Source: Candidatus Dadabacteria bacterium (GTDB lineage Bacteria > Desulfobacterota_D > UBA1144 > Nemesobacterales > CSP1-2). From it: a DNA stretch of 64,000 bases. The position numbers and the translations under genes are program-made. Positions 49,114 through 64,000 of this stretch are shown here, in pieces. The stretch spans positions 192,001-256,000 of the forward strand of contig CAWDVW010000002.1 of assembly GCA_963805855.1 (NCBI GenBank), written 5' to 3'. The first letter of the stretch is position 1. Every line of letters begins with the position of its first letter. The notes beneath the pieces were generated by a model that saw only the letters and a list, made by a program, of their open reading frames with translations, was not told the origin of the DNA and did no database searches.

Positions 49114-50817
49114 CTATTCTGACTTATGTAACCTTGCCTTATCAACATTTTTTTCACGCAGATACTTGTCTAACTCATTTATATTTGCGTCACTATATTG
49201 CTCAAACGATTCGTAACCCTTGTCCGTGATCACGGTGTCCGCTTTATACCAGACATCTATATTAACTTTTCGGTTTACTTTACGTGAAATATCCTCCTCA
49301 ACCCTCTTAAGATCTTCAGGCCTAATTGCATTTATACCAACTGCTTCAACTAACACATCCCACGAATCCCCTTTATGATTGTGATGAATGTTAACCGGAA
49401 AAAGCGAATCGTATCCTTTAAATTTATCTATAATTTCCGCCTCAATCTTATTTCTCGTCTCCTCTTGTTTATCACTGAAGTCACTAGCATATCTCCAGCC
49501 GGTCAACACTCTTCCCCTCTTGTCTGACAGGGTTGTTTCTACATTCCTAACTATAAGATTCAAATTCGGTTTCCCTAATGCCTCTTGCAACTTCTGCTCA
49601 AGTTCCCCGATCTCGGGCTCGGAAAGATTTCGGTAACCCTGAATCGTAGCAATTATTGTTGGTCCCTTTGGAAGAACCGCATAGTCAATGTCTATCAGAT
49701 CCATTCCCGGCCAATAGGACAATTTTTCGAGAAAAGCTTGCTCAGCCTTGCTTATAGCTCGCTCTTCATCGGTAAGAGACTCGTTTAAAAAGAATCCGTC
49801 TAAATTTTGACCGACTACTTCGCCCCCAGTCGACCCAAGAGCGGCAATATCTTGCGAGATCACATCTCTCACTATCAGTTGAGTTGGAAATTTCGTAATT
49901 CCCGACAGCGTCGTTTGTATCTCCTCTACCTTATCAGGAGTTATCAATTTGGGGCTTTTCACATTCGCTAATACATATAATTTTCCGTTTTCCTTGTCAT
50001 AGATGAAGCTATCGAGTGAGCTTGAACGAAACTTTTCGAATTCAGAATCCAGGACGTTCTTAATTGAAAGTTCCATATACCTTTCCTTAACGATTGCAAC
50101 TAAAGAATACGTTAAAAAGATAGCCACGATCGCAAATCCGATAAGGGCAAATCCGAAGCGCCTGAATACGTCCTTCGAAGATAACGATATCCACCACGGA
50201 TTTAGACCCGCAAGCACGAAGGTTGCTCCCGCCACTATGACGATCGACAGGAAATTTGCAAAAAACAACATGAAAGAACCAAAGGCCCCGGAGTAATATC
50301 CAAGAGCCAGGCTTAACCCAGTATTCGATAGCGGTGGAATAATCGCGGTCGCAATAGCTACGCCCGGAAGGACAGGACTGGATTTCTCATCAATCATTGT
50401 AAGAGCCCCCGCAAATCCCGCTAAAATTGCAACCATGAGATCTAGTATCGTAGGCCTGGTTCTTGCAAGCATCTCGGGAGTGGCTTCGAGAGCAAGGGGT
50501 AGAAAACCCAATATTCCAGCAAATAAAATTGATAAAACTATCCCGATTACGACAGATCGAATGGATATTCCGAGCAGGCGAGGATTGCCTATTACAATCG
50601 CCAGAGAAATCCCTATTATCGGGGTCATAAGCGGAGAAACCAGCATGGCTCCTATAATCACTGCCGTACTATTTGCCATGAGTCCGAATGCGGCAATCAA
50701 TGAAGCAGTAGAGAGTAGCGCATAGAATCTAAAGCCTGGTTCGGAACCGGCCGATATTTCATCAAATATTTCTTCCTTTCGCCCCTTGGATGCTCGGATC
50801 TGACTGATTGTTATCAT
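49114..50817 (-). CDS. DUF389 (TIGR00341-like) membrane protein
   Basis: 'NSTAVIIGAMLVSPLMTPI' and 'LPGVAIATAIIPPL', with an extended soluble C-terminus. Confidence 0.85.
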   Translation of the reverse strand: MITISQIRASKGRKEEIFDEISAGSEPGFRFYALLSTASLIAAFGLMANSTAVIIGAMLVSPLMTPIIGISLAIVIGNPRLLGISIRSVVIGIVLSILFAGILGFLPLALEATPEMLARTRPTILDLMVAILAGFAGALTMIDEKSSPVLPGVAIATAIIPPLSNTGLSLALGYYSGAFGSFMLFFANFLSIVIVAGATFVLAGLNPWWISLSSKDVFRRFGFALIGFAIVAIFLTYSLVAIVKERYMELSIKNVLDSEFEKFRSSSLDSFIYDKENGKLYVLANVKSPKLITPDKVEEIQTTLSGITKFPTQLIVRDVISQDIAALGSTGGEVVGQNLDGFFLNESLTDEERAISKAEQAFLEKLSYWPGMDLIDIDYAVLPKGPTIIATIQGYRNLSEPEIGELEQKLQEALGKPNLNLIVRNVETTLSDKRGRVLTGWRYASDFSDKQEETRNKIEAEIIDKFKGYDSLFPVNIHHNHKGDSWDVLVEAVGINAIRPEDLKRVEEDISRKVNRKVNIDVWYKADTVITDKGYESFEQYSDANINELDKYLREKNVDKARLHKSE

Positions 50818-50959
50818 GACCTATTAGAATACAAAAATATGATGGGATTGCTAGAATGCTGATTTGAAGAATTTCACGAGTAAATAACCCCTCCACTCCG
50901 TCGCGCAGTTATTCATTACGGAAATTCATTTCCGCCCGACTTAAAAATTTACTAAATAA

Positions 50960-51220
50960 ACCTCCCTGCAGCAAGCTGCACGACCTCACAATAGAACCTC
51001 AAAGGCTCAGGTGTCATCTCGAAGGAGCAAAGTGACTGAGAGATCTTTATTTATTAAAAAGGAAAGATATTTCGCTTCTGTTCAATATGACAGGGTTTGG
51101 GCAGCCCTTGTCTTGAGTAGTGAGCCCTGAGCCCGTCGAAGGGTCAAACTATCAAAGCGTTGTTTCTTTGTACCTTTGCTGAACCATGTCCTGACGATAG
51201 GTCAGGATCTATTCAGTATC
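50960..51220. repeat. Nested REP-like cluster
   Basis: CTGCAGCAAGCTGCA, a GTCATCTCGA...TGAGAGATCT unit and triply nested CTTGAGTAG[TGAG[CCCTGAGCCCGTCGAAGGG]TCAAA]CTATCAAAG. Confidence 0.7.
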
Positions 51221-51247
51221 AAGATAAAGAAACTAAAGGTATGAATC

Positions 51248-51568
51248 TCAACCCTGGGCGCAATCAATGCATCGATCGGTGTAAGGAAGGGCTTCCAATC
51301 GTTTGACTGAAATAGGGGTTTCGCAGACCGCACATATACCATATGTGTTTTTGTCTATACGATTGAAAGCGTCGTAAATTTGCTCTAATTCAACGCGAAC
51401 ACTTTCCTCAAGCCCCTCTACCACTTTTTCATGCGCACGCTCTAGAGCCTGTTCTTCCGAGTCCTTATCATGGGCTTTCCTCAGAGACTTCTTCAGCTTT
51501 CTGAACTTCTCCTCAAGCTCGACGCGTCGAATCCGAAGTTTTTCAACCAGTTCTTTATACTCATCCAT
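51248..51568 (-). CDS. TraR/DksA C4 zinc-finger protein
   Basis: 'TYGICAVCETPISVKRLEALPYTDRCIDCA'. Confidence 0.88.
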   Translation of the reverse strand: MDEYKELVEKLRIRRVELEEKFRKLKKSLRKAHDKDSEEQALERAHEKVVEGLEESVRVELEQIYDAFNRIDKNTYGICAVCETPISVKRLEALPYTDRCIDCAQG

Positions 51569-51841
51569 AAAAGATTCCCTCTTTTATGTTCTTATATCAT
51601 TAAAACACTTTAATTATATCTAACCACTTTATAATACCCACACTTTCGCAGTTAACTAAATCCCGGGATATCAAGGAGTCATATTGGTTTTCTTCATGCC
51701 ATTAGAACCAGAAATAGGATCATCTCTGAGACTATTCTGTCCGTATAATCCTTTGGAAACTGAACATTTGTTAGAACTCGTTTGTAGAGTTTTAGGTCCC
51801 AGATTTTCTGCGTGTGAATCAAATTCGAGAGCTTATAGAAC

Positions 51842-52771
51842 CTATGGCACCAGGCACCCGGGCGGCACACTTATAATTGCACTTGCACTCTCCTGATTGA
51901 TGTCGCCCCTCGGTCCAAAAATTTCACAATCAACAGGAGGCGCCAACAAGTCAACTACCACTGACGATTGGCCACCGGCCCTGATCCCAAATTCCTCAGA
52001 CGAGTTTATTACGAACTCTTCACCGCTGGAAAGATTCGTAAACGTCTGATTACTGCTCCTGACTCCGCTGTTTCGACTGGAAATTTCGAAGTTCCGAGAT
52101 GCATCAATTGAGATCACCGCTCTCTTATTTACATTGATACCAGCTGCACAATTTGTCGCGCTGAAGTTTTGTACATTTATCACAATAGAACTATTCTTGT
52201 TAGCTTTAATACAATCGTTTGATCTGCCGTTTATAGTAAAGTCTGCCAACTGCGGGGTCGTTATTGAGAATTCTGGTCCCGAAAATATAAATCTCTTACC
52301 GCCACCTATTCGTATCCGTTTTTGTTCTACCTGATAACCACCACCGTCAACATCATCAATAATTACCTGACCGGGACTTTCAAGTCTAACATCCAAAAAC
52401 ACTTGACTATCTTTTGTTATCAAGAAAAACTCGGAAAAGGTTTCTGAAAAGGGAAGAGGCGTCGTAAAAACCAATTCTATAAGTCGTTGAAGTCCCTTAG
52501 CGGGAACCTTTAACTGGTAAGCCCCAAATACGCCCGTTTCGGTACCCCTCCCCAAAGTTTTCCCGGTGTTCGGATTCATTGCTTCGATGGATATTCCAAA
52601 AACATCACCGGTATCTCCATTAACAGATGTTACCATCCCTGAAATCGTGACTCTTCCTGGCCCTCCACCACCGCCACCACCGCCGGTGACGTCAAAGCAA
52701 CCTGTCATTATTAGTGCCGCAGCTATTGCCGATGCGATAAAAAAGGAAGGAGCAATTGATCGTTTAGTCAT
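51842..52771 (-). CDS. Hypothetical lipoprotein with Gly linker and beta-rich repeats
   Basis: Lipobox-like 'MTGC', poly-Gly linker and C-terminal beta-helix-like periodicity. Confidence 0.65.
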   Translation of the reverse strand: MTKRSIAPSFFIASAIAAALIMTGCFDVTGGGGGGGGPGRVTISGMVTSVNGDTGDVFGISIEAMNPNTGKTLGRGTETGVFGAYQLKVPAKGLQRLIELVFTTPLPFSETFSEFFLITKDSQVFLDVRLESPGQVIIDDVDGGGYQVEQKRIRIGGGKRFIFSGPEFSITTPQLADFTINGRSNDCIKANKNSSIVINVQNFSATNCAAGINVNKRAVISIDASRNFEISSRNSGVRSSNQTFTNLSSGEEFVINSSEEFGIRAGGQSSVVVDLLAPPVDCEIFGPRGDINQESASAIISVPPGCLVP

Positions 52772-53245
52772 TCGATTATTCTCCTAATAATCCGAAATCT
52801 TTCAATCCGCTCATTCTAGCACATGTCATCTCCTTGTCAATTAAACCCTTTCACGTGGTCAGACGACGATAAACGGAGTTTTCCAACTTCGACAATTAGC
52901 TTTTATCACGGCACGTATAAAGGTCCATCCCCTCTCCCTACTTCAGTCTCATTCTACAACTTCTTCATTTCAGGTATCTTCATTTTCGATGCGAGAAAGG
53001 GGTGCCTTGAAGAAGTTTGTTCATACGATTACGCATTTTCATTGCGTTGAGAATCGAATGTTCATAATTCTTAAGCATTTGGATTATGTAGTTTTTTGGC
53101 GGATCCTGGCAGGTGGCCCAGACAAGCTGCTAATGATATAATTATTGACACTAATATCTAGGAGCTTAAATTGTTATACATGGTATTTTTAAGTCCATTT
53201 CAGCAGCTAGGTTTCGAATCCCATCCTTAAAAAAGGGGGTAGCAT

Positions 53246-53617
53246 ATGAAGGCTATAAATAAACTTCCGATTGTTATCATACTTCTCTTCAGCACTGGCG
53301 CACTTGCCGGTGACCTCTTTGATAGCGGTCTTGGGGATAACGAAGTGGGTGCTGGCTCCAATTATGACGCCGCACAGAATAGTTGGGACTATGGAACTCA
53401 TGATGACGCTCTCAAGTACAATGTCTTTCAGGATAAGTGGAACTATGCGGGTGAAGGCGACAGTCTCAAGTACAACACCTTTGAGAACGAATGGGATTTC
53501 GCGGGCGAGGATGATAGTCTCAAGTATAACGTCTTCGAAAATAAGTGGGAGTATGCCGACGATAAAGACACGCTCAAGTACAACGTATTTGAAGACGAGT
53601 GGGAGTTTGCAAAGTAG
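53246..53617 (+). CDS. Exported acidic protein with tandem 18-aa repeats
   Basis: Signal peptide, then four clear copies of LKYNxF[EQ]xxW[EDN][YF]A (54-bp period) and one degenerate copy. Confidence 0.8.
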   Translation: MKAINKLPIVIILLFSTGALAGDLFDSGLGDNEVGAGSNYDAAQNSWDYGTHDDALKYNVFQDKWNYAGEGDSLKYNTFENEWDFAGEDDSLKYNVFENKWEYADDKDTLKYNVFEDEWEFAK

Positions 53618-53671
53618 GTGAAGGTTTGCTAAACGGCCTGTCCCGAAAATAGTTGAAAGGCTCAAAAAATT

Positions 53672-53806
53672 ATGTGCGACCCAGTGCTGATAGCCGCAAT
53701 TCCAGAAGAACTTGGCTACTTCGACGAAAAGAAGGGAAAGGACAAGAGGGAGGAATTTCGTGCCCAGCAGCTTGGCCAAGACAATTCAGAAGGCAGCACG
53801 GAATAA
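53672..53806 (+). CDS. Unannotated 44-aa microprotein, copy 1 (MCDPVLIAAIPEELGYFDEKKGKDKREEFRAQQLGQDNSEGSTE)
   Basis: Below the ORF-track cutoff. Paralogous to 58694-58840, with differences in the first ~20 codons mostly at synonymous third positions. Confidence 0.7.
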   Translation: MCDPVLIAAIPEELGYFDEKKGKDKREEFRAQQLGQDNSEGSTE

Positions 53807-54006
53807 TAAGCAAAATAACTCATTTATTCAGGCCTGACCCTCAGAATTTGTACAATTCAAATATCGGGTAGTGGGGGTACGCTGCGTTCCCTCCCCTTCT
53901 TTGTTTGCAATTTAAAGGATTTTCGTTGGTTTTGCGATTCCACTAGTATTAAAGTATAATTGTATCATAGCATTATATTCTACCTAAAGGAGAGATATAG
54001 ATATAT

Positions 54007-54246
54007 ATGAAAACAGTCAACGTTCGTATACCGGAAGAAAAAAGGGATACTCTCAAGATCATTGCCAGCTTAGAGAAAAGAGACATGAAAGATATTATCT
54101 CAGAACTTGTCGACCAATATATTGAAAGACACAAGGAAACTCTTGAGATTCTTTCGAATCCCGACTGGGTAGAGCTGATTAGAAAGGGAAAGAAAGAAAT
54201 CGATGAGGGTATTAAGGGTAAATCCCTTGAAGAACTGGAAGACTGA
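54007..54246 (+). CDS. Ribbon-helix-helix antitoxin
   Basis: AAGGAG SD, RHH-like 'MKTVNVRIPEEKRDTLK' and a C-terminal 'ETLEILSNP...GKSLEEL' typical of RelB-like antitoxins. Overlaps the toxin gene. Confidence 0.8.
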   Translation: MKTVNVRIPEEKRDTLKIIASLEKRDMKDIISELVDQYIERHKETLEILSNPDWVELIRKGKKEIDEGIKGKSLEELED

Positions 54247-54496
54247 AATAAAGCCGACTGCAGAAAAGAGCTACAGAAAGCTTGATAAAAAAACACGGGG
54301 TAGGATAAAAGAAGCTTTATTAAAATTGGAAAAAAGCGATAATCCTTTTCTGGAACAACAAGTCAGAGCGTTGACCGGCGAACTCAAGGGAGATTTTAGG
54401 CTTAGGGTTGGAGACTTAAGAATTTTATTTACGCCAGATAAGAAAAGAAAGGTAATCAGCATATATGCAATCATACACAGAGGAAAAGCATATTAG
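54227..54496 (+). CDS. RelE/ParE-family toxin
   Basis: 'LTGELKGDFRLRVGDLRILF...IIHRGKAY'. TTG start chosen inside the antitoxin 3' end. Confidence 0.88.
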   Translation: MKNWKTEIKPTAEKSYRKLDKKTRGRIKEALLKLEKSDNPFLEQQVRALTGELKGDFRLRVGDLRILFTPDKKRKVISIYAIIHRGKAY

Positions 54497-55037
54497 TATG
54501 ATTATTCTTAACATCCGCGATTGGGAACATCCCCCTTTGCCTGTCGTCCCCGAATGCTTTTTTCAGGGACCCATTATTTTGCTATCGTGAAGCGCAATAT
54601 CGGCTTGCCTATTCTGAGCCACCGTAAGGGCGAGCAAGCCCATGACTGTACCGGCGACCCGCCACCTTCAGTCATTCCAAAGCACGCCCAGTTAAAGTCA
54701 TACGGGGACAAGCATAATCGTGAATCCATGAATAAAAAGAGTTTCTTCTTCCCTTCGTTTTTCCTTCTATTCCTTATCACCCATTCGCCCTGAGTAGTGA
54801 GCTCGTCGAACTATCGAAGGGTGACAAATTCCAATAAACTGCCGGAAATCCCCTTACAAGTTGTCATTCCCGAGGACCGTAATCGGGAATCCACGTGGTT
54901 GGTGAAAGTAGCTCGACATGATTGTCCTGAGTTCTGCACTTTATGACGGATCGGAGACTCTAAGAGTGGGTAAATAAGCAACTGAAGAACGAGCCTGACC
55001 CGGCCCCAGCGGGGTCCAGTGTTTAGAGACGAAGTGT

Positions 55038-55310
55038 TCAAAGCCTTTTCACAATCTTCTCATACACTATCTTCCGGTGAATGATTCCTAAAATTTCGAC
55101 TTCATTTTTAACGATTTTGAATACGATTCTTATATCTCCGACACGTAGTTTCCAGTAGCCTTTTAACGAGCCTCTGAGGGGTTTCCCATATTTCTCAGGC
55201 TCATCGGCTAATCTGGTTTTTATAGCTTCGGCGATGATCTTTTTTTGCTTCTTGTCAAGAATCGCAATGTCGTCTTCTACCTGAGGATGGTAAACAATGG
55301 TATAGGGCAT
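55038..55310 (-). CDS. RelE/ParE-family toxin
   Basis: 'PEKYGKPLRGSLKGYWKLRVGDIRIVF...IIHRKIVY'. Confidence 0.9.
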   Translation of the reverse strand: MPYTIVYHPQVEDDIAILDKKQKKIIAEAIKTRLADEPEKYGKPLRGSLKGYWKLRVGDIRIVFKIVKNEVEILGIIHRKIVYEKIVKRL

Positions 55311-55565
55311 TTATTTTCCCTGTAAGTGGCCAGTCCGATCCTTCCATATTTCTTCATGCGTGAGAGCTTTCTCTCGTCTAAACGTTTTCTCTCGTTCTGA
55401 CGCAATTTCACCCAGAATCATGTCTTCATGAATTTCCAGTGCCTCGCGAAGGAGATCTCGTGCTTTCAGTGAAATAGATATACCCTCCTTTTTTGCAATC
55501 TTTTTAATTGCTTCATAAAGGGGTTTTTCTAACACAACATTTATACGAGGGTTTTTAGCAGGCAT
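55311..55565 (-). CDS. RHH-type antitoxin
   Basis: 'MPAKNPRINVVLE...SISLKARDLLREALEIHED...LTHEEIW', directly upstream of the toxin with an AAGGAG SD. Confidence 0.82.
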   Translation of the reverse strand: MPAKNPRINVVLEKPLYEAIKKIAKKEGISISLKARDLLREALEIHEDMILGEIASEREKTFRREKALTHEEIWKDRTGHLQGK

Positions 55566-55689
55566 TATTACTCCTTAAATTTAATTGTTTAATAAAGTGT
55601 ATCACAAGTGATGTACTCATTCAAAAAATCTCCCATAAAATGGGTTAGTTCCGAAACGGTCAATTCTGTAATATAATTAATACATTCCA

Positions 55690-55812
55690 ATGTGTGATCC
55701 AGTACTGATAGCCGCAATCCTCCGCCGTTTGTCATTCCCGAGGATTCCCCGATCAAGGATTTCGAGGACAAGCGTAATCGGGAATCCATTTTTTCGTTTA
55801 CCCAGTTCCTGA
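55690..55812 (+). pseudogene. Microprotein copy 2, truncated by REP insertion
   Basis: ATG TGT GAT CCA GTA CTG ATA GCC GCA ATC CTC (MCDPVLIAAIL) runs into a REP at 55731. The upstream 55651-55689 matches 58655-58693. Confidence 0.65.
55731..55787. repeat. 57-bp composite REP, identical to 57295-57351
   Basis: GTCATTCCCGAGGATTCCCCGATCAAGGATTTCGAGGACAAGCGTAATCGGGAATCC. A shorter 'empty' version lies at 54863-54892. Confidence 0.85.
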
Positions 55813-55846
55813 ATCTCAAGTTGTGTAATATAATAAATAAAAGCCC

Positions 55847-56078
55847 ATATGTGACCCAGTGCTAGTAGCGACAATCCTCAACCTACAGTCATTCCCGAGG
55901 ACTGTTGTCGGGAATCCATATCGTCATCGCGAAGGGAGAAGCCCTGTGGCGATCTCCCTATCTCTTGAAAAACTGGGATTTCTAAACGAGAGAGAAAGAA
56001 AAAGACAACAAAGGGGAAGTACATGCCGAGCAGCCTCAGCAAGATAATTCAAAAAACCGCGAGGAAGAAGAGATATAA
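55847..56078 (+). pseudogene. Microprotein copy 3, interrupted by REPs
   Basis: ATA start, CDPVLVATIL, a ~80-nt REP insert, then LEKLGFLNE... and a frameshifted tail KDNKGEVHAEQPQQDNSKNREEEEI-stop. Confidence 0.6.
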
Positions 56079-56196
56079 GGTAAAGTCACCGATATCACAA
56101 AAATGATCTACCTATTTATTTTCCAATCTTTGATCCCTCGAAGTTTCGCTTTTGATCCTGCATCCATGTATCATGCATCCGGTATCCTGACTAGCC

Positions 56197-56349
56197 GTGT
56201 ATAAGTTAATAATCGCAATTCTTCTTATGCTTATATCTATTAGCGGATGTTCAAAACGAGCGGACTACAAAAACTTCTATCATGAAGGAAGGAGTCTCAT
56301 TAGGCCAGGCCATGAATCGCCGGCAGAGTATGGGAGCAGCTATCGATAG
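56197..56349 (+). CDS. Small putative lipoprotein or truncated lipoprotein gene
   Basis: GTG start, MYKLIIAILLMLISISG-C lipobox, 50 aa. Confidence 0.4.
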   Translation: MYKLIIAILLMLISISGCSKRADYKNFYHEGRSLIRPGHESPAEYGSSYR

Positions 56350-56473
56350 TAATCTCTTCAAGGATGTTGCGGAGGTTACACCTATTATTTGCGTACTTGC
56401 CTTTCAATATCACTTATCATCAATGTTGCGCAAAGATGCTTCCCTTTAATTCCTGAAGATTTGCTCTACGCTC

Positions 56474-56502
56474 TTGAAGATCTATCATAATCTGGCTATA
56501 AT
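56474..56502 (+). promoter_or_regulatory. sigma70 promoter of the toxin-first TA operon
   Basis: TTGAAG-17 nt-TATAAT, ending 9 nt before the ATC that opens the toxin frame. Confidence 0.65.
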
Positions 56503-56511
56503 CTAGCCAGA

Positions 56512-56805
56512 ATCAAATACAAGATCATTTTTTCGCCGGAGGCCATTGAAGATTTTAAGCGATTATCAGCAAGAGATCGTGCTATCATGCGCGATGCCGT
56601 AGGACGACATCTAAGCCATGAACCCAATAAAACAAGTAGAAGTCGCATCAAGAGGTTGCAGGGAATCAGTCGTCCTCAATATCGGCTACTTGTCGGTGAA
56701 ATTCGAGTGTTTTATGATGTAGTAGAGGCGGCAGTAGAAATATTGGCGATTGTACCAAAATCAAAGGCCGCAGACTGGCTTGAAGGGTGGGGACAAGAAG
56801 AATGA
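56512..56805 (+). CDS. RelE/ParE-family toxin with a non-canonical or mutated start (ATC)
   Basis: In-frame upstream extension IKYKIIFSPEAIEDFKRLSARDRAI supplies the RelE beta1-alpha1 region missing from the listed 72-aa ORF; also 'YRLLVGEIRVFYDV'. Confidence 0.8.
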   Translation: MKYKIIFSPEAIEDFKRLSARDRAIMRDAVGRHLSHEPNKTSRSRIKRLQGISRPQYRLLVGEIRVFYDVVEAAVEILAIVPKSKAADWLEGWGQEE

Positions 56806-57047
56806 AGAAAGTACCATTGTCAGAAGTAAAGGATCAGCTCTCCGAATATTTGCACCTGGCCGAGGAAGAAGAGATTATAATAACTCGGCATGGAAAACCT
56901 GCCGGCATTTTGATAGGGTTTGCTTCAGAGGATGATTGGTTTGATTATCGATTGGAGCATGATCCGAGGTTTTTAACCCGAGTTGAAAGAGCAAGGAAAA
57001 GCTTGCGTGAGGGGAAAGGAGTGTATCTCAAAGATCTTCCTGAATGA
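56802..57047 (+). CDS. Phd/YefM-family antitoxin
   Basis: 'MKKVPLSEVKDQLSEYL...EIIITRHGKPAGILI', with an ATGA overlap onto the toxin stop. Confidence 0.9.
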   Translation: MKKVPLSEVKDQLSEYLHLAEEEEIIITRHGKPAGILIGFASEDDWFDYRLEHDPRFLTRVERARKSLREGKGVYLKDLPE

Positions 57048-57447
57048 TATGTCAAGGTAGCACCTGGGTACGCAAGTTATCGGGAATCCATATCGTCATC
57101 GTAATTCGATGTACCCGGGATAGACTCCACTGCGGCGATCTCAGTACTTTGTCATTTCGAATACTTCGGTCGAGCTCAGCACAGGTTCCATGAGAAATCT
57201 TTCCGTTAAAATCATTTCTGGAAAGAAGAACAACAAGAGACGAAACAAAATAGTCAAACAAGCAAAGCCTGACCGTGGACACACCCACCGGTCTGTCATT
57301 CCCGAGGATTCCCCGATCAAGGATTTCGAGGACAAGCGTAATCGGGAATCCAGTATCGTCATCGCGAAGGGCAAAGTCCTGTGGCGACCTCCCTATCTCT
57401 CGAAGAACTGGTATACCTCGGCGAAAAGAAAGAAAAGAGCAAGATCG

Positions 57448-57810
57448 TTAAGATTTTGATTTGCGAGGTGTTTGGCTGTCCTCTTTTTTACGACTTTGGA
57501 TGGAGGCAAGGCCTGCAAGCAGCACAGGGGGTCTGTTAGGAAATTCAGCAACGATAGACAGCTCCCCGCCTAATGAGTGAATATACTCGCGCAGGGTTGA
57601 CAACAGCACGTCCGAGCGTGATTCAAGGCGCGAGACATTGTCCTGGCTGATCCTAAGTTTAGTTGCAACTGCTTTTTGGGTGAGATGGAGCGCCTTGCGT
57701 AACTCACGCATTGTCATCTCTTCGGCAATCAATTCCGCTGCACGGGCTTGAATCTTATCCCGTCTCTTTTTGGTCAGCTTGCTCAGCTTTTCATCAAGAG
57801 TTTTGCCCAT
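57448..57810 (-). CDS. HigA-like XRE HTH antitoxin
   Basis: 'LRKALHLTQKAVATKLRISQDNVSRLESRSDVLLSTLREYIHSLGGEL'. Confidence 0.88.
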   Translation of the reverse strand: MGKTLDEKLSKLTKKRRDKIQARAAELIAEEMTMRELRKALHLTQKAVATKLRISQDNVSRLESRSDVLLSTLREYIHSLGGELSIVAEFPNRPPVLLAGLASIQSRKKEDSQTPRKSKS

Positions 57811-58193
57811 TATTTTTTCCCTTTCTTTTTCGTTTTTCTTGCCTTAAGCGCCACGAGATGGCTGTCAAAACGGCGGTCCGCCTTCTTTATGAGCCGTTCG
57901 TAAAATCGCTTCTCCCTCGTGCCGGATTTATCGCCAGCCATGAGAAGCACCGCTTTACGCTCGGGGTCAAAGGCAAAGACAACGCGCCACACCCCCTTAT
58001 CAGCCTTGAACCGCAGCTCCTTCATATTCGCATGCTTGGAGCCATAAAGCGTATCCACATGAGGCCGGCCCAGCTCCGGCCCGAAAGTCTCAAGTAGGGA
58101 AGCGTGCGCGTAAAGTTCATCCTGCACGGCTTCCGCCAGTTGATCGACCTCTGGCTCAAAATCGTCATGGAACGTGACAGTCCATTTCTTCAT
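57810..58193 (-). CDS. HigB-like (Gp49/RelE superfamily) toxin
   Basis: 'GPELGRPHVDTLYGSKHANMKELRF...WRVVFAFDPERKAVLLMAGDK', upstream of the HTH antitoxin. Confidence 0.9.
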   Translation of the reverse strand: MKKWTVTFHDDFEPEVDQLAEAVQDELYAHASLLETFGPELGRPHVDTLYGSKHANMKELRFKADKGVWRVVFAFDPERKAVLLMAGDKSGTREKRFYERLIKKADRRFDSHLVALKARKTKKKGKK

Positions 58194-58693
58194 TTATTAT
58201 GACCCTTTTCAATATGTTGTCAAGTACATATGTATTGAAAGGCATATGTCCTCGGAAAGTCGGACACGCTCTCACTCGCACGCTGGGTGATGCTCTCCGG
58301 AATGTCTGCAAATACACCTGTTCCAACCATGGGCATATACATAAAGTTTAGCACCATAAATACCCATAAAGGGTTGCCCTTCAATCAACTCTGTCATGTC
58401 GCTTACAATATATCTTTTATATAGTTTATTAATTCTATTTAGGGATCAATATACAGCAGGTAAAAGAAATAGCAGGGATAATGGCACAGCTTTGCAATGA
58501 GTGCGGTTTTAGAAGTAAAAAAGATAACTGTCTCAAGTGTGGAAGAAGGGTATAGGTTCAAGGTTGGGCGGTTCAATGTCTGCATCACCAAACCCCTCAG
58601 TTAAAAATGAGATATTAACGTCTGTGTCCCCTCTGGCTCAATTATTGGCCTGTCCCGAAACAGTCAATTCTGTAATATAATAAATACAATTAT

Positions 58694-58840
58694 ATGTGTG
58701 ACCCGGTACTAATAGCAGCAATCCTCGAGGAACTAGGCTACTTTGACGAAAAGAAAGAAAAGGTCAAGAAGGACGAAGTTCATGATGAGGGAAGTAGCAA
58801 TGACCCTTCAGAAAACAGCAAGGAAGGAGATCAGAAATAA
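58694..58840 (+). CDS. Unannotated 48-aa microprotein, intact copy (MCDPVLIAAILEELGYFDEKKEKVKKDEVHDEGSSNDPSENSKEGDQK)
   Basis: Paralog of 53672-53806 with TATAAT at 58676-58681 and the same flanking junction motifs. Confidence 0.72.
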   Translation: MCDPVLIAAILEELGYFDEKKEKVKKDEVHDEGSSNDPSENSKEGDQK

Positions 58841-58966
58841 CTCATTTATTCATGCCTGACCCCGGACACTTTATACTGAACAAAATAATCAAACAAACAA
58901 AGCCTGGCCGTGCACATATACTATCCAAAGGGTATAATAGCTTAGTAAATTAGTAGGGAGATAAAG

Positions 58967-59212
58967 ATGACGACGAAGGGCAAAAAGAAAGCAAGGAGAA
59001 AACATGTTGTTAGAGCTCATCAGGTGCAAGTTGTAGAGCTGACAAAGGCAGGTACATCACTGAGATTAGAAATTTACGCACATAAAGAGAAAATAGGCAC
59101 GCTTGAAATTGGACGAGGTTCATTGTATTGGACTGGAAGATCTCGTCAAAAGAGTAATCGAATTAACTGGAGTAAGTTTGCTGACTGGATGGATCGACTT
59201 GCATATGACTGA
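58967..59212 (+). CDS. Small basic hypothetical protein
   Basis: TATAAT and an AGGGAG SD upstream; 81 aa with a protein-like beta/alpha pattern. Confidence 0.7.
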   Translation: MTTKGKKKARRKHVVRAHQVQVVELTKAGTSLRLEIYAHKEKIGTLEIGRGSLYWTGRSRQKSNRINWSKFADWMDRLAYD

Positions 59213-59415
59213 TAGAACAACATCTTCGACCTTGCGTTTATCACGTTTAAGTGGCAGATTCCACCAAGTTCACTCCTTTCAAGTAGACCCACTTTCTCAA
59301 TTATTTTGTCTCTCTGCGTATTGCCAGATTCTTTATATATAGTATAAGATTTAGGACTGACCCCGGAGCTTTGTTAAAAAATTGGGATCAATTTAATATC
59401 AATAGAGGCAAGAAA

Positions 59416-59491
59416 ATAAAAAAGTTTGTATTGATTTCCTGCGCTAGCAAAAAATTCCCGCGTAAATCCAAGGCAAAGGATTTATACATAG
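59416..59491 (+). pseudogene. N-terminal remnant of a DUF6884-like gene
   Basis: 'KKFVLISCASKK...KAKDLYI' resembles the DUF6884 N-terminus. It has an ATA start and is cut off at the inverted-repeat element. Confidence 0.5.
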
Positions 59492-59594
59492 TAACTAGTG
59501 ACAGACACGAATTAATTTCAACCTTAATAATAATTACTAGACGTAATCAGTTGATGGTCCCCCACCTATAAAAATAAGTGTCTGTCACTAGTTA
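59492..59594. mobile_element. MITE-like 103-bp element with perfect 17-bp terminal inverted repeats
   Basis: TAACTAGTGACAGACAC (59492-59508) ... GTGTCTGTCACTAGTTA (59578-59594). Confidence 0.6.
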
Positions 59595-59788
59595 TTTATT
59601 TCTATGTTTAGTATCAACAAACGGACTGTCAAGCCAATCCGATTTTAGGGGAACTGCCCTTACTCCCTCTTGATGAGTCATTCGCAATATCTGCCTATAT
59701 CTTGCAATAAAATCTTCCAATTTTCTAAAGAATATTTCAGAAATCTGTATTACTGTTTTTATTATATTGAAATGATTATATTATAGAA

Positions 59789-60787
59789 ATGCTTGAAAAC
59801 AACTTGAAAGATATGGTCGCTAAAAGATATGGCAAGTTAACTGTAAAGCACCGAGTATTCCCTAATGATAAACAAGGGGCTGCACAATATCTCTGTAAGT
59901 GTGATTGTGGTAAAGAAAAAGTTGTCAGGGGATATGTGTTGCGTAAAGGAGACACCAAATCTTGCGGTTGCTTGCGAGGACAAAATGCCCTCAAATTAGC
60001 TGGAAAAAGGTTTGGAAAGTGGACAGTTATTGAACGTGTAGAAAATAACGATAGAGGAACTTCCAGATGGTTATGTGAATGTGAGTGTGGCCGTCGTAAG
60101 GAGGTATTGGGGAATAATTTGGTTCAAAATAGAAGCAAATCTTGTGGCTGCGTAACTGTGGAAAATACAATTCGACGCAATTTTAAACATGGTTTTAGAA
60201 AACGAGACGCGGAACATCCGCTCTACACAACTTGGCTAAATATGAGAGATAGATGCAATAATCCTAAAAATAGCCATTGGAAACATTATGGAGGCAGAGG
60301 GATTAAGATATGTGAAAGGTGGAATGATTTCACAAAATTTATTGAAGACATAGGAGAAAGACCCCGTGGAGCGACCCTCGACCGTATTGACAATGATGGT
60401 GATTACGAGCCTGGAAATATAAGATGGGCTTCACATAGAGAGCAAAGAGCAAACCAAAGTCTGGTTTTTCAAGAGATGTATATTTATAGCATGAATACTA
60501 GTCTTGGGAAATCTGGGGGGAAGGGCAGATATGGGAAGGCTAGGTCTAAAGCTTATAACACTTGGAGTGGAGTGGTTCAAAGATGTACCAATCCAAAAGA
60601 AACTGCCTATGAATATTACGGAGGCAGAGGTATAAAGGTTGACAAATCTTGGAGAGAAAGCTTTTTAAAGTTTTATAAAGATATGGGTGACCCGCTCCCA
60701 GGATATGAATTACATCGTTTAGACCACGACGGAAATTATGAACCTGGCAATTGCGTGTGGGCAAAAAAAACTAGAAGGAAATTGTAA
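59789..60787 (+). CDS. Phage-type HNH/homing endonuclease-like protein with duplicated modules
   Basis: Two 'KRxGKxTV...LCxCxCG...KSCGC' modules and two 'Y.TW....RC.NP......YGGRGIK...D.DG.YEPGN..WA' modules. Confidence 0.8.
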   Translation: MLENNLKDMVAKRYGKLTVKHRVFPNDKQGAAQYLCKCDCGKEKVVRGYVLRKGDTKSCGCLRGQNALKLAGKRFGKWTVIERVENNDRGTSRWLCECECGRRKEVLGNNLVQNRSKSCGCVTVENTIRRNFKHGFRKRDAEHPLYTTWLNMRDRCNNPKNSHWKHYGGRGIKICERWNDFTKFIEDIGERPRGATLDRIDNDGDYEPGNIRWASHREQRANQSLVFQEMYIYSMNTSLGKSGGKGRYGKARSKAYNTWSGVVQRCTNPKETAYEYYGGRGIKVDKSWRESFLKFYKDMGDPLPGYELHRLDHDGNYEPGNCVWAKKTRRKL

Positions 60788-60833
60788 TGGTCGGAATGGA
60801 CTCGGAACAAATGATGTCAGTAGAAGAGGAGAC

Positions 60834-61178
60834 ATGAGAATGAGTATTATCTCAGACGCAAAAGAAATTGTGAAACTTGTGAGAAAGTTGGACGACGTCG
60901 AATTATACAGAAAAATTCTAAAACTGGAAGAAGAAATTATTGAGATTACTCGAAAAAACAACGACCTACAGCAGAAAATAGACGAACTTAAGAAAATTAT
61001 CGAAACAGAAACAAGCCTAGAATTTCGTCCGCCTTTTTATTACAGAGCGGGTGATGATATACCATTATGCCCTAAGTGCTGGGAAGTCGATAAGAAAATT
61101 ATTCACCTTGTTAATGTGAGAACTGCCTTTAATCCGTTGAGGTGTCAGTCATGCAGGTCTCGATACCCTCTAAGGTAA
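60834..61178 (+). CDS. Coiled-coil plus zinc-ribbon hypothetical protein
   Basis: AGAGGAG SD, heptad region, 'CPKCWE' and 'CQSC'. Confidence 0.72.
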   Translation: MRMSIISDAKEIVKLVRKLDDVELYRKILKLEEEIIEITRKNNDLQQKIDELKKIIETETSLEFRPPFYYRAGDDIPLCPKCWEVDKKIIHLVNVRTAFNPLRCQSCRSRYPLR

Positions 61179-61400
61179 TTCATAGTCTAGCAAAGGAGAA
61201 ATCATATATTCGCTCAAGGAAGTTAATTAAAGAGAATATGGCGTTTAACTCAGTGCGGAAGAAAACATAAAGGTAAAGGGTATTGCTCCATACATTATCG
61301 AAGAGCCTCAAAATATGGAAACCCTTATGAGATAAGAATGAAAAGTTCCGCGAGACGCTTCAGTATGGACGGTTTTTGTCCATACCACTAGGTAATTTTA

Positions 61401-62313
61401 ATGGCTGAATTTAGAAATAAATTCCAGTGGTCAATTTCAAGACAGAGGAACTTCGACAAATGCAAACGACTCTATTATTACAGTCACTACGGTATGTGGG
61501 GCGGATGGGACATGTATGCACCAGAAGAAGCCAAGCTATGTTATAGATTATCAAGGATGACCAATCTACAAATGCTTGCGGGAAGTGTAGTACATGCGAT
61601 GATTAAGAATTGTTAAAAAGCGTTAAAAGTCCAAACTTAATGAGCCTGGATACTCTAAAGATAGAGCAAGAAATAAGCTTAATGGAGCATGGAAGCAGTC
61701 TAAGGAAAAGGGATGGCTTGAAAGCCCTAAGTGGAATATCAATCTATTTGAGCATTACTACAACAGGAACCCCTCAAAGGAATACTTAGAAAGAATAAAA
61801 TCCAAAGTAATGGACTCTTTAACTAATTTTTATAATTCAGAAATATTCTTAAACATAAAAGGAGTTGATTCTCTCTATTGGAAACCCATCGAACAATTTC
61901 AACAGTTGCAAATAGAGAATTACACAGTTGGTCTCAAGATGGATTTCGCTATTGAAATCGACGGGAAGTTGGAAATTTATGATTGGAAAACAGGAAAGGA
62001 AGACGATTCAAATATTGAACAGCTGGTTTGTTATGCCCTTTATGGAGAACAAGAATGGGGATATAGTCTTGACGATATTATTTTGAAGATATTTTATCTT
62101 AATGAAAACCAATTAGAGCAACATAATGTTTCGGCTGAGCAAAAAGTTGAGGCAATTGAAAGGATAATTCAAAATAGCGAGAGAATGCTCAGTATGCTCG
62201 ATGACAAGGATAACAATGTTGCCAGCAAAGACAATTTTCCTATGATTGATAACCTGAATGAATGCAAGTGGTGCTTTTTCCAAGAGATGTGCTATGGGGC
62301 TTCAGTCGAATAG
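61401..62313 (+). CDS. PD-(D/E)XK (Cas4/AddB-like) nuclease, split by two apparent frameshifts
   Basis: 'WSISR...CKRLYYY', 'GSVVH', 'MDF...IYDWKTG', 'QLVCYA' and C-terminal 'CKWCFFQEMC'. Adding one base at each of two short runs (about 61610 and 61657) gives a single frame. Confidence 0.8.
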
Positions 62314-62533
62314 GCGTTGATTTTCTAACGGCTAACTTAAATCAAAGGTACTAGAAACCGCTTGAGCTGACATCCCGTGTTATCCTTCTTTGAAGTCTCT
62401 TATCGTCTTTCCAGGTGGTTCACTTTGTACACGACCTACACAGCCGATTGATTATGAACCTAGTGTAGTAAGTGTACTTGTGTGAGAGATAGAAAGTCGT
62501 TAATTACGAATATTTAAACCTCCTACTGGTATT

Positions 62534-63352
62534 TTGTATACTAGTTACTGTGCAACAAATTCGGAGACTAAGGCATTGTTGAGTTTTCTCGATCGAATAA
62601 TTTCAAGTCTTAACAAATCTAAATCAATTCCCCTACTTGACATTGAAGAACTGAAAAAGCGTGGAAAAAGAAATATAGAAGACGCAATATTTATAAAAGA
62701 GAAATTAATTCCTATTGCAGTTAAATACGAACATTGGAATATCGTTGTATTTGAATCATATGCAGTTATAGAATTAATTATGAAAGGGCTAATTTGTTTG
62801 ACCAAGAATGCTCCATGTAAAACGCATGAAATCAAAAAGTTGGTTGAACAAATGTTGAATATTCTGTCAATGTTTTCAGCTAATAACTCTTGGTTACCTT
62901 TACTTTATAATCACTACCCAAAGAGCGGTGACGGTTATTGTGTAGACATTGATAGTGATATTATTCGTGTGTACAGAATTGACAATGACGTATATACACA
63001 GTTGGGGGCATCTAGTGCAGTTAGAAATATAAAATCTGTCGATGAAATTTTAAGACTCACAGTCAAGAAATTTAAAAATGAAATAGCTGTAAGTGTAGGA
63101 GACGATGAAATTATCAGAAGAAACGACTCGACATATGATTTCCCCGACGAAAGCGAATGGGAAAGGGGATTTAATTTAAGACCAAATTCAGAAAGACTGG
63201 GACTGTTGATAAGGTTAGGAAAGAAATTAAGAAGAATACGCGAAAAATCGTTCTATGGCGAAATAATTTATGATGAAGAAAAAGCTAAAAAGGTTGTGTC
63301 GAGTATGGACGAATGGTTAGATGCTGCAGCCTGCTTCTTTATAAGTGATTAA
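62534..63352 (+). CDS. HEPN-domain protein with a large internal insertion
   Basis: 'WNIVVFESYAVIELIMKGLI...PCKTHEI' and 'LRRIREKSFYGE...EKAKKVV' match the two halves of a HEPN domain. Start uncertain. Confidence 0.65.
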   Translation: MYTSYCATNSETKALLSFLDRIISSLNKSKSIPLLDIEELKKRGKRNIEDAIFIKEKLIPIAVKYEHWNIVVFESYAVIELIMKGLICLTKNAPCKTHEIKKLVEQMLNILSMFSANNSWLPLLYNHYPKSGDGYCVDIDSDIIRVYRIDNDVYTQLGASSAVRNIKSVDEILRLTVKKFKNEIAVSVGDDEIIRRNDSTYDFPDESEWERGFNLRPNSERLGLLIRLGKKLRRIREKSFYGEIIYDEEKAKKVVSSMDEWLDAAACFFISD

Positions 63353-63603
63353 GCAATACTGTTCCCCATTAAGAAGCTAGTAGAATTGAGCTAGTAAAAT
63401 AACGTGAAAAAGCTCTAAGGAGTGGGGGGGGGGGAGCAATGAAGCGAGGGAGATGGGATTCTAGAATAAACACTTATATGTATTGAAGGTTTGTTTGACA
63501 AAAGTGAAGCAGTACAATCTGCTTAGATGACCATGGTGAAATTTCATAGGGTCACGATGCTACATTCTTGTAATAATCCCAAAAAGAAGTTTTATTTGGG
63601 AAT

Positions 63604-64000
63604 TTATAAGCAAAACTTTATATATAATAATATGCCAGCAGCGATAATAACTAAGATAACCCGCAGATTAAAAAAGTGTGCATAAGTTATCGAACTGCAG
63701 TGAGGACACTTTAAGGTAGCAGAGCCTATTTCACCACCACATTTACCGCACTTATCAAATATGCGGGGTTTCGCTCCAGTAGCCTTAATTTGGGTTTCTT
63801 TAACGGAAGTCGTGAGATTAGTAGATATTCTTCCTTGGTTATATCTATTATCGAAATCTTGTTCGCTCATAGAGAGATAAGATAGCCCCTCCAAGAAACC
63901 AACGATAGCTGGTATGAACGTCCAACAGAATATCAAATAAATGAAACCCCAACCAGGACTGTCCAAATAGAATTTATGTATTCCAATGCCGCCTAGAAAT
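63604..64000 (-). CDS. TM2-domain membrane protein with zinc ribbon (5' end outside the window)
   Basis: Upstream frame reads FLGGIGIHKFYL, followed by 'GFIYLIFCWTFIPAIVGFLEG' and 'CGKCG...CPHC'. Confidence 0.85.
   Translation of the reverse strand, partial: FLGGIGIHKFYLDSPGWGFIYLIFCWTFIPAIVGFLEGLSYLSMSEQDFDNRYNQGRISTNLTTSVKETQIKATGAKPRIFDKCGKCGGEIGSATLKCPHCSSITYAHFFNLRVILVIIAAGILLYIKFCL

Follow-up and report, generated by a model that had tools for sequence, protein, structure and literature searches.

What are the short, identically oriented repeats that punctuate an array of toxin-antitoxin (TA) operons in a genome of Candidatus Dadabacteria, and do they mobilize the genes that lie between them? 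The array lies in a 64-kb stretch of contig CAWDVW010000002.1 (positions 192,001 to 256,000, forward strand), here called the window, and an earlier note on this DNA had read the repeats as scars of a non-integron gene-capture system acting in trans. The motif is very probably the 29-nt terminal inverted repeat (TIR) of TIRYT/TIRtron elements, left as relics among the TA operons by master elements that reside elsewhere in the genome. Each TIRYT/TIRtron element is an insertion sequence (IS)-like unit, roughly 1 kb long, whose gene specifies a RAYT-like Y1/HUH transposase with a DnaA-type helix-turn-helix (HTH) at its C terminus; such elements are a known, little studied kind of selfish DNA and not a new gene-capture system. 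Below, G000 denotes the window's own genome (3.11 Mb), G001 and G002 two congeners, and G007 a member of a different genus; numbers preceded by C are contigs, of G000 unless another genome is named.

The window motif and its master elements

Four exact matches to AAATAR-N13-GCCTGRCC occur in the window, all on the plus strand, at 53813, 57248, 58835 and 58883, and the pattern was matched in 0 of 100 dinucleotide-preserving shuffles (0 expected). Widening the spacer to 11-16 nt adds a site at 54972, so that all five positions listed in the earlier note hold. The bare 8-nt core GCCTGRCC is not specific, with 183 copies genome-wide (88 on the plus strand and 95 on the minus strand). Ungapped position weight matrices (PWMs; matrices a and b) made from the genome copies of the motif score the four exact sites at 46.6 (53813), 41.9 (57248), 52.2 (58835) and 44.6 bits (58883), against maxima over 200 shuffles of the 7-kb region of 4.8 (matrix a) and 11.6 bits (matrix b). 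Every window copy is in the 'right-end' orientation, and the PWM scan of 53001-60000 returned no copy on the minus strand, which agrees with the note's description of co-oriented sites among cargo lying in both orientations. The sites at 54972 and 59349 fall below threshold with the ungapped matrices (-12.3 and -19.4 bits) and are therefore decayed relics. The latter is the core that the note had placed near 59356; it was recognized by alignment to 58848-58866 and resembles the outer half of the 58835 site.

The division of the spacers into two sub-families is real, and the 12 exact genome-wide copies sort into the same two. By sequence match, each sub-family corresponds to the TIR of one of two paralogous master elements on other contigs. 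The family-a master element is intact and occupies 1026 bp (C5:690328-691353). Its gene (C5:690346-691323) encodes a 325-aa protein, whose true start is probably M13, with Pfam matches to Y1_Tnp (4.5e-14) and, over residues 237-296, to Bac_DnaA_C (3.6e-11), and is bounded by inverted family-a motifs at 690328 and 691325 that match at 28 of 29 nt. The family-b master element (C7:79771-80796) is also 1026 bp long, is bounded by inverted family-b motifs (C7:79771/80768; 27/29 nt match) and specifies a protein 54% identical to that of family a; its gene is a pseudogene whose HTH part is frameshifted and contains stop codons. The inverted partners around these genes establish the outer end of the 29-nt repeat as GGGGTCAGGC. 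Two more Y1 paralogs carry GGGG-tipped inverted repeats of their own (C6:168614/169632 and C7:293034/293790). H72 and H74 of the HUH motif and Y131 within RYIHLNP are invariant across the four paralogs; we take Y131 to be the catalytic residue of TIRYT-a. The note had proposed a search for Y1_Tnp genes flanked by the same motif, and the two masters are such genes; at the level of sequence, its suggestion holds that these are mobile DNA ends on which a RAYT-like Y1/HUH transposase acts in trans.

RAYT-like genes flanked by long TIRs, and not by repetitive extragenic palindromes (REPs), have been named TIRYT ('TIR-associated tyrosine transposase') or TIRtron; many of their TIRs share GGGGWSAS, and the TIR copies, which may be single, dimeric or grouped, make up repeat families of moderate abundance (Di Nocera, De Gregorio, Rocco 2013, PMC3733652). 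A later survey assigns 20 of 26 TIRYTs to TnpAREP subclass 2.1, in which the C-terminal HTH is Bac_DnaA_C, HTH_23 or HTH_28, with Bac_DnaA_C carried by group 2.1.2 (Quentin, Siguier, Chandler, Fichant 2018, PMC6006769). A full-text search returned the terms TIRYT and TIRtron only in these two papers. The present elements share with TIRYTs a RAYT-like Y1/HUH transposase with a Bac_DnaA_C-type tail (subclass 2.1.2), a gene tightly bounded by long TIRs, several paralogs per genome with a TIR type each, and a dispersed repeat family of moderate abundance whose copies are single, paired or clustered. The tip GGGGTCAG of families a and b fits GGGGWSAS, and those of the C6 paralog (GGGGTCAA) and the paralog at C7:293k (GGGGACGC) fit it partially. 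Three features differ: many copies here are single ends fused to a ~210-bp unit with a conserved small open reading frame (ORF), copies are strongly enriched next to TA and defence modules, and the outer flanks are points of insertion or deletion (indels) between species; none of the three is described in the portions of PMC3733652 and PMC6006769 available. The earlier note had named ends of a known IS as the outcome that would speak against gene capture, and since a described IS-like family (PMC3733652) accounts for the sites as its ends, that reading fails its own test.

The family is dispersed and restricted to one lineage, and its copy number differs between species. At 25 bits or more, the PWMs find 16 family-a and 11 family-b copies in the 3.11 Mb of G000, with one extra match of about 15 bits each, the best scores in shuffled contigs being 9.8 and 14.8 bits. 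When up to 3 mismatches are allowed, the family-a pattern is matched 15, 33 and 12 times in the genus (three genomes), 3 times in one neighbouring genus and in none of 27 other relatives; a reversed-pattern control gave 0 in all 31 genomes. Copies cluster in the window, at C5:690-698 kb and at C7:75-84 kb. The TIRYT-a gene is intact in G000 and G001 and reduced to a short remnant in G002, and at one locus the element is present or absent; this difference and the copy numbers are indirect signs that the transposase acts on its TIRs. Derivatives that resemble miniature inverted-repeat transposable elements (MITEs; small, gene-less, with a TIR pair and a target-site duplication) occur at three loci of G000 (C5:697421-697684, C7:75791-75933 and C3:39843-40102), the first of which retains the last ~50 codons of the transposase gene. 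These are inverted TIR pairs flanked by no visible target-site duplication, and the window units have one TIR only.

Other families with Y1 enzymes resemble these elements less closely. REP, BIME and REPIN repeats with their RAYT (TnpAREP) are likewise short and extragenic, are served in trans by a single-copy Y1 gene itself flanked by inverted copies, have inverted pairs as the likely mobile unit, and cluster in intergenic gaps. However, the present motif has neither GTAG tag nor palindromic stem, its copies number in the tens and not the hundreds, its protein scores under the NCBIfam REP_Tyr_transpos cut-off, and true GTAG hairpins exist separately in this genome. A classical REP is an imperfect palindrome of 20-40 nt with a GTAG/CGTC tag; the motif shows no tag and no significant fold, and single-strand DNA folding of 58640-58915 gave no stable structure on either strand (z = +1.25 and +1.17), in line with the absence of attC-type structure reported in the note. 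The family-b TIR is nearly free of T, which makes self-pairing impossible, and a weak AT-only stem in the family-a TIR (GAATAA/TTATTC) was rejected as a family feature, as it is missing from family b. IS200/IS605 elements and their gene-less PATE derivatives share the Y1/HUH fold (Pfam Y1_Tnp) and the short non-autonomous derivatives, but their ends are distinct subterminal hairpins rather than inverted repeats, and they show an orientation bias relative to replication that is missing here, where the single ends split 11 vs 7 against GC skew. The same split led to the rejection of lagging-strand targeting as a cause of the co-orientation.

The small-ORF repeat unit

The window copies are single (one-ended) relics, and in two cases such a copy terminates a ~210-bp non-autonomous unit on its 3' side. 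These two, both of family a, close the units 53635-53841 and 58647-58863, which are 75% identical over 170 nt (match to 58693-58862). The unit comprises a left end (consensus ..GTTCCGAAAY..), the promoter-like TGTAATATAAT, an ORF beginning MCDPVLIAAILEELGYFDEKK, an A/G-rich tail and the TIR, which holds the stop codon. The sequence GGCCTGTCCCGAAA, which the note had counted among cores related to the sites, is present at 53635 and 58647, with no further copy in the 3.11-Mb genome; it is the left end of the unit, and the family consensus is unlike the TIR core, so its kinship with the sites falls away. No left TIR was detected, the best minus-strand PWM score being -24.6 bits (58645); by eye, the promoter-like stretch bears some likeness to an inverted TIR. 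The unit was also considered as the left end of a TIRYT and rejected, as the Y1 gene adjoining it in G001:C122 has its own, different TIR.

The small ORF, of 44-50 aa with a charged tail, is multi-copy and found in G000 also at C7:723797, C6:101689 and C4:35015. Pairwise comparison of 13 copies, drawn from four genomes, gives differences of 0.10, 0.09 and 0.40 at the first, second and third codon positions, and single-base codon differences are mostly synonymous in frame (471 synonymous, 202 non-synonymous) and mostly non-synonymous in the other frames (114/551 and 68/635). The excess at third positions and of in-frame synonymous changes indicates current or recent translation of the small ORF. 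Its homologs number 125 (26-84 aa), none of them named; Pfam and NCBIfam have no family that matches it, and the ESM Atlas gave no usable match. Broken units are interrupted after codon 11 by nested hairpin repeats that are also found in the copies of G001:C22. These broken-ORF units are multi-copy and share the same interruption; the units thus spread at the DNA level, also with a dead ORF.

Two kinds of hairpin are associated with the units. REP-like hairpin repeats of the form GTCATTCCCGAGGA...CGGGAATCCA lie at 54863-54893, 55731-55788, 55888-55918 and 57295-57352, and their 3' arm CGGGAATCCA has 58 genome copies; in several small-ORF copies they are nested at the same codon, with ATTCTC/ATCTC on either side in the manner of a target duplication. 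At C2:86480, C5:720669, C7:196010 and C4:78073, the start of the small ORF is replaced by a GTAG-tagged REP hairpin (CATGTAGCGGAGGAC...GTCCTCCAC), and classical GTAG REPs therefore coexist with TIR repeats in G000.

Origin of the single ends and competing explanations

A TIRYT origin accommodates the window as follows. The intact family-a enzyme would serve the window ends in trans. Most likely, TIRYT-a recognises family-a TIRs, perhaps through its DnaA-type HTH, and, by analogy with other Y1/HUH enzymes, it would most likely nick one strand at the GGGG tip. The mobile form would be the inverted pair (the element itself and the pairs of 143-264 bp), and the single ends would be products of decay, partial events or local duplication that accumulate because they cannot be excised. 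Co-orientation would then reflect local duplication together with the preferential loss of inverted pairs, since these form excisable MITE- or REPIN-like units. Local duplication within the window is suggested by the altered tip ...CCGTG.ACA common to the family-b copies at 57248 and 58883 and by the first three nucleotides (GGA) that the 59349 remnant has in common with the flank of unit 2. Cleavage or joining at TIR ends, or recombination between them, would make the outer flanks prone to indels. TIR repeats and hairpin repeats would collect in TA islands because such islands tolerate insertions.

Several observations weigh against this account. The protein reaches 68.5 bits with NCBIfam REP_Tyr_transpos, under the 80-bit cut-off of that family, and a profile of the four transposase sequences finds the solved TnpArep structure 4er8 at no better than E = 0.13. 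The same profile matches DnaA domain IV structures at 5.1e-08, and a sequence search of solved structures with the transposase alone gave 0 matches. No transposition has been shown for any TIRYT, and the available portions of PMC3733652 and PMC6006769 report no TIRYT experiment. No clean empty site or target-site duplication was found (C2:86480 and the MITE at C5:697421), intergenic DNA being unalignable between species. All four strong sites and both decayed sites of the window are co-oriented, whereas orientation is mixed genome-wide. The small-ORF units are single-ended, with no detectable left TIR, a form whose multiplication the account does not explain. Finally, the adjacency to TA and defence modules and the breaks 0-14 nt from the TIR end exceed what passive junk would predict.

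These last two features carry the strongest competitor, in which the TIR ends are working junctions of an HUH-driven cassette system: a Y1 enzyme acting in trans would cut one strand at co-oriented or convergent outer tips and join them, thereby excising, inserting or shuffling what lies in between, here TA cassettes. We regard this as improbable. Excision, capture and reshuffling of the DNA past the tip, mostly TA and defence genes, would need no integron integrase, and the small ORF would be part of the machinery or a passenger, a scheme that we also rate as having little chance of being right. Its models, one-ended or rolling-circle capture by ISCR/IS91 or the formation of RE-LE junctions in IS608, could apply here by analogy, and with the same low probability.

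The evidence in its favour comes from the outer flanks. The first gene past the TIR tip is part of a TA or defence module at 4/17 single copies in G000, 4/24 family-a copies in G001 and 4/12 in G002, a frequency far above chance in these three species, although TA loci are few (in G000 four common TA families have 15 matches, of which 5 lie in the window). Congeners carry the same TA operons on other contigs, again beside a TIR or a unit, and an alternating array of units and TA operons is found in another genus (G007:C142). At 4/4 orthologous copies (the left end of TIRYT-a, C7:542538, C5:720669 and C7:636563), species-specific DNA starts 0-14 nt outside the TIR tip, and breakpoints beside the motif, which the note had proposed to look for between strains, are seen between species. 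Neighbouring single ends at most 5 kb apart in G001 and G002 form 8 co-oriented and 3 convergent pairs. Convergent family-a TIRs in G001:C78 enclose exactly 2.4 kb (2704-5077) with a metal-sensing repressor (Trns_repr_metal) and a P-type ATPase, where G000 has 139 unrelated bases, and a further 9.3 kb of G001 lies exactly between convergent TIRs.

The same flanks also argue against a cassette system. The tip of the TIR lies 59, 31 and 21 nt from TA operon 1 in three contexts, which have three different upstream repeats and in one case a different TIR type, and 31-85 nt from the other TA operons; the varying distance means that there is no fixed crossover site and no conserved junction. Outside the window, 10 of 13 single copies have no TA or defence gene past the outer end (eight have another kind of gene, two only unnamed ORFs), and most copies elsewhere sit between housekeeping genes, with Lon, rplQ, queA, dapA and dnaE among the neighbours. 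There is no orientation bias against GC skew, and the 9.3-kb segment contains a tyrosine-integrase fragment, so another delivery mechanism is possible. The genomes compared are fragmented drafts of different species, and the direction, order and mechanism of the changes therefore cannot be read from them.

The motif could instead be kept for a host function, for instance to end transcription, to stabilise mRNA at the 3' end or to bind a protein at the small ORF or the TA operons, its likeness to a transposon end being secondary; this is very unlikely. The family-a motif always overlaps the stop codon of a small ORF under purifying selection, and REP-type repeats can act as RNA 3' elements (PMC3733652). 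However, there is no stable fold, as noted above, and no G+C-rich stem followed by a T-run, and Rfam returned 0 matches over 50000-64000 at E up to 1. The same 29 nt also bound transposase genes as inverted repeats, and units with a broken ORF are still multi-copy.

Chromosomal integrons have co-oriented repeats between small cassettes, many of them TA operons, and the window shares this look. That the sites are attC sites of an integrase-less integron-like array (CALIN) can nevertheless be dismissed almost with certainty: neither unit nor motif has the inverted symmetry to form an attC-type hairpin, none of the 9 genome matches to PF00589 lies inside the window, the cargo has genes in either orientation, repeats and genes are separated by varying distances, and the motif is accounted for as a transposon TIR.

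The TA island and what the elements offer

TIR copies and REP-like hairpins are piled up in the intergenic gaps of a variable TA island that two congeners lack at this place; the left flank of the window is conserved to 53021 in G001 and G002, and the island is missing there from that point on. Coordinates of its features are collected in Table 1.

Table 1. Repeat units, TIR copies and TA operons of the island (window coordinates).
Feature	Position	Strand	Details
Small-ORF/TIR repeat unit 1	53635..53841	+	Left end GGCCTGTCCCGAAA; small ORF 53672-53806 (44 aa); family-a TIR 53813-53841; outer end ...GCCTGACCCT
TA operon 1	54007..54496	+	79-aa putative antitoxin (no Pfam match), then ParE-family toxin 54203-54496 (ParE_toxin 3.2e-07)
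Decayed b-type TIR	54972..55001	+	15-nt-spacer variant
TA operon 2	55038..55565	-	ParE/RelE-type toxin 55038-55310; ribbon-helix-helix antitoxin 55311-55565 (Pfam)
Two broken small-ORF units	55647..56100	+	ORF starts 55690 and ~55850; no intact TIR 3'
TA operon 3	56524..57047	+	ParE/RelE-like toxin; Phd antitoxin 56787-57047
Family-b TIR, single end	57248..57276	+	
Broken small-ORF unit	57290..57444	+	Hairpins and 3' part of ORF; TIR lost
TA operon 4	57448..58193	-	HTH antitoxin 57448-57810 (HTH_3 5.2e-07); Gp49/HigB-type toxin 57810-58193 (Gp49 4.6e-21)
Small-ORF/TIR repeat unit 2	58647..58863	+	Promoter-like TGTAATATAAT; small ORF 58694-58840 (48 aa); family-a TIR 58835-58863
Family-b TIR, single end	58883..58911	+	
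Family-a TIR outer-half remnant	59349..59367	+	ATTTAGGACTGACCCCGGA; 84% identity over 19 nt; under matrix threshold

All four TA operons named in the note are confirmed by Pfam, and no transposase or integrase was found in the 45 + 18 window ORFs scanned, the unscanned ORFs of at least 90 aa being 53207-53776 (-), 53973-54293 (-), 54521-54790 (+), 57711-58094 (+) and 63604-63963 (-). A tblastn search with the Y1 transposase likewise gave no match inside the window. This agrees with the note, which had found neither kind of gene.

TA operon 1 is 94% identical to its counterpart in G001:C9 and 91% to that in G001:C116; a REP-like hairpin that ends near 54577 follows it on the 3' side. The broken Y1 paralog at C7:293034-293790 has a third TIR type, TTAAAGGGGACGCAACCCTTTAAG, on its flanks; TA operon 1 of G001:C9 is preceded by a complete copy, and in the window what may be a remnant (GGGGGTACGCTGCGTTCCCTCCCC) lies at 53868-53896, between the family-a TIR and TA operon 1. 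The stretch around the 54972 site is 79% identical to G001:C116:1573-1704, which bears a b-type TIR. TA operon 2 has a relative in G002:C97 that likewise stands just past a family-a TIR, and both units that follow it are split after codon 11 by nested GTCATTCCC...GGGAATCCA hairpin repeats. The unit before TA operon 4 lost its TIR through a ~130-bp deletion relative to G001:C22, where the counterpart retains a family-a TIR 31 nt ahead of the operon.

TA operon 3 (56474-57055) is 92% identical to G002:C157 and 91% identical to G007:C711, whereas the remaining segments common to the window and G007 are 70-77% identical, and this difference suggests a recent horizontal transfer of the cassette. 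Its toxin matches ParE_toxin at 22 bits (Pfam). The toxin frame is open from 56491 (to 56805) and the match to the family profile begins at 56524, but no ATG, GTG or TTG precedes 56587 and no canonical start occurs before residue 30; the toxin may use an unusual start codon or be inactivated.

Other features lie around the array. A 123-aa secreted-looking protein with three 54-nt tandem repeats (..D.LKYNVFE..W.Y..) and no Pfam family is encoded at 53246-53617. A gene-free stretch at 59492-59594 contains a 22-nt inverted repeat, with arms 91% complementary and 59 nt apart. The island continues at 59789-63352 with a 332-aa protein (internal duplication, Cys-rich motifs, no Pfam match), a PD-(D/E)XK/Cas4-like nuclease and a HEPN-domain protein, and this part looks like a defence-type neighbourhood.

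For annotation, the lesson of this locus is that the look of a cassette array can stem from the accumulation of transposon ends and small repeats in a TA island. The lineage is also a compact natural test system for TIRYTs, with an intact enzyme gene, a dead paralog, MITE-like pairs, single ends, and congeners that together with G000 span 15, 33 and 12 copies. It opens the questions of whether DNA bounded by TIRs is moved by a Y1/HUH enzyme with a DnaA-type tail, why single ends persist, and whether accessory genes turn over near these ends.

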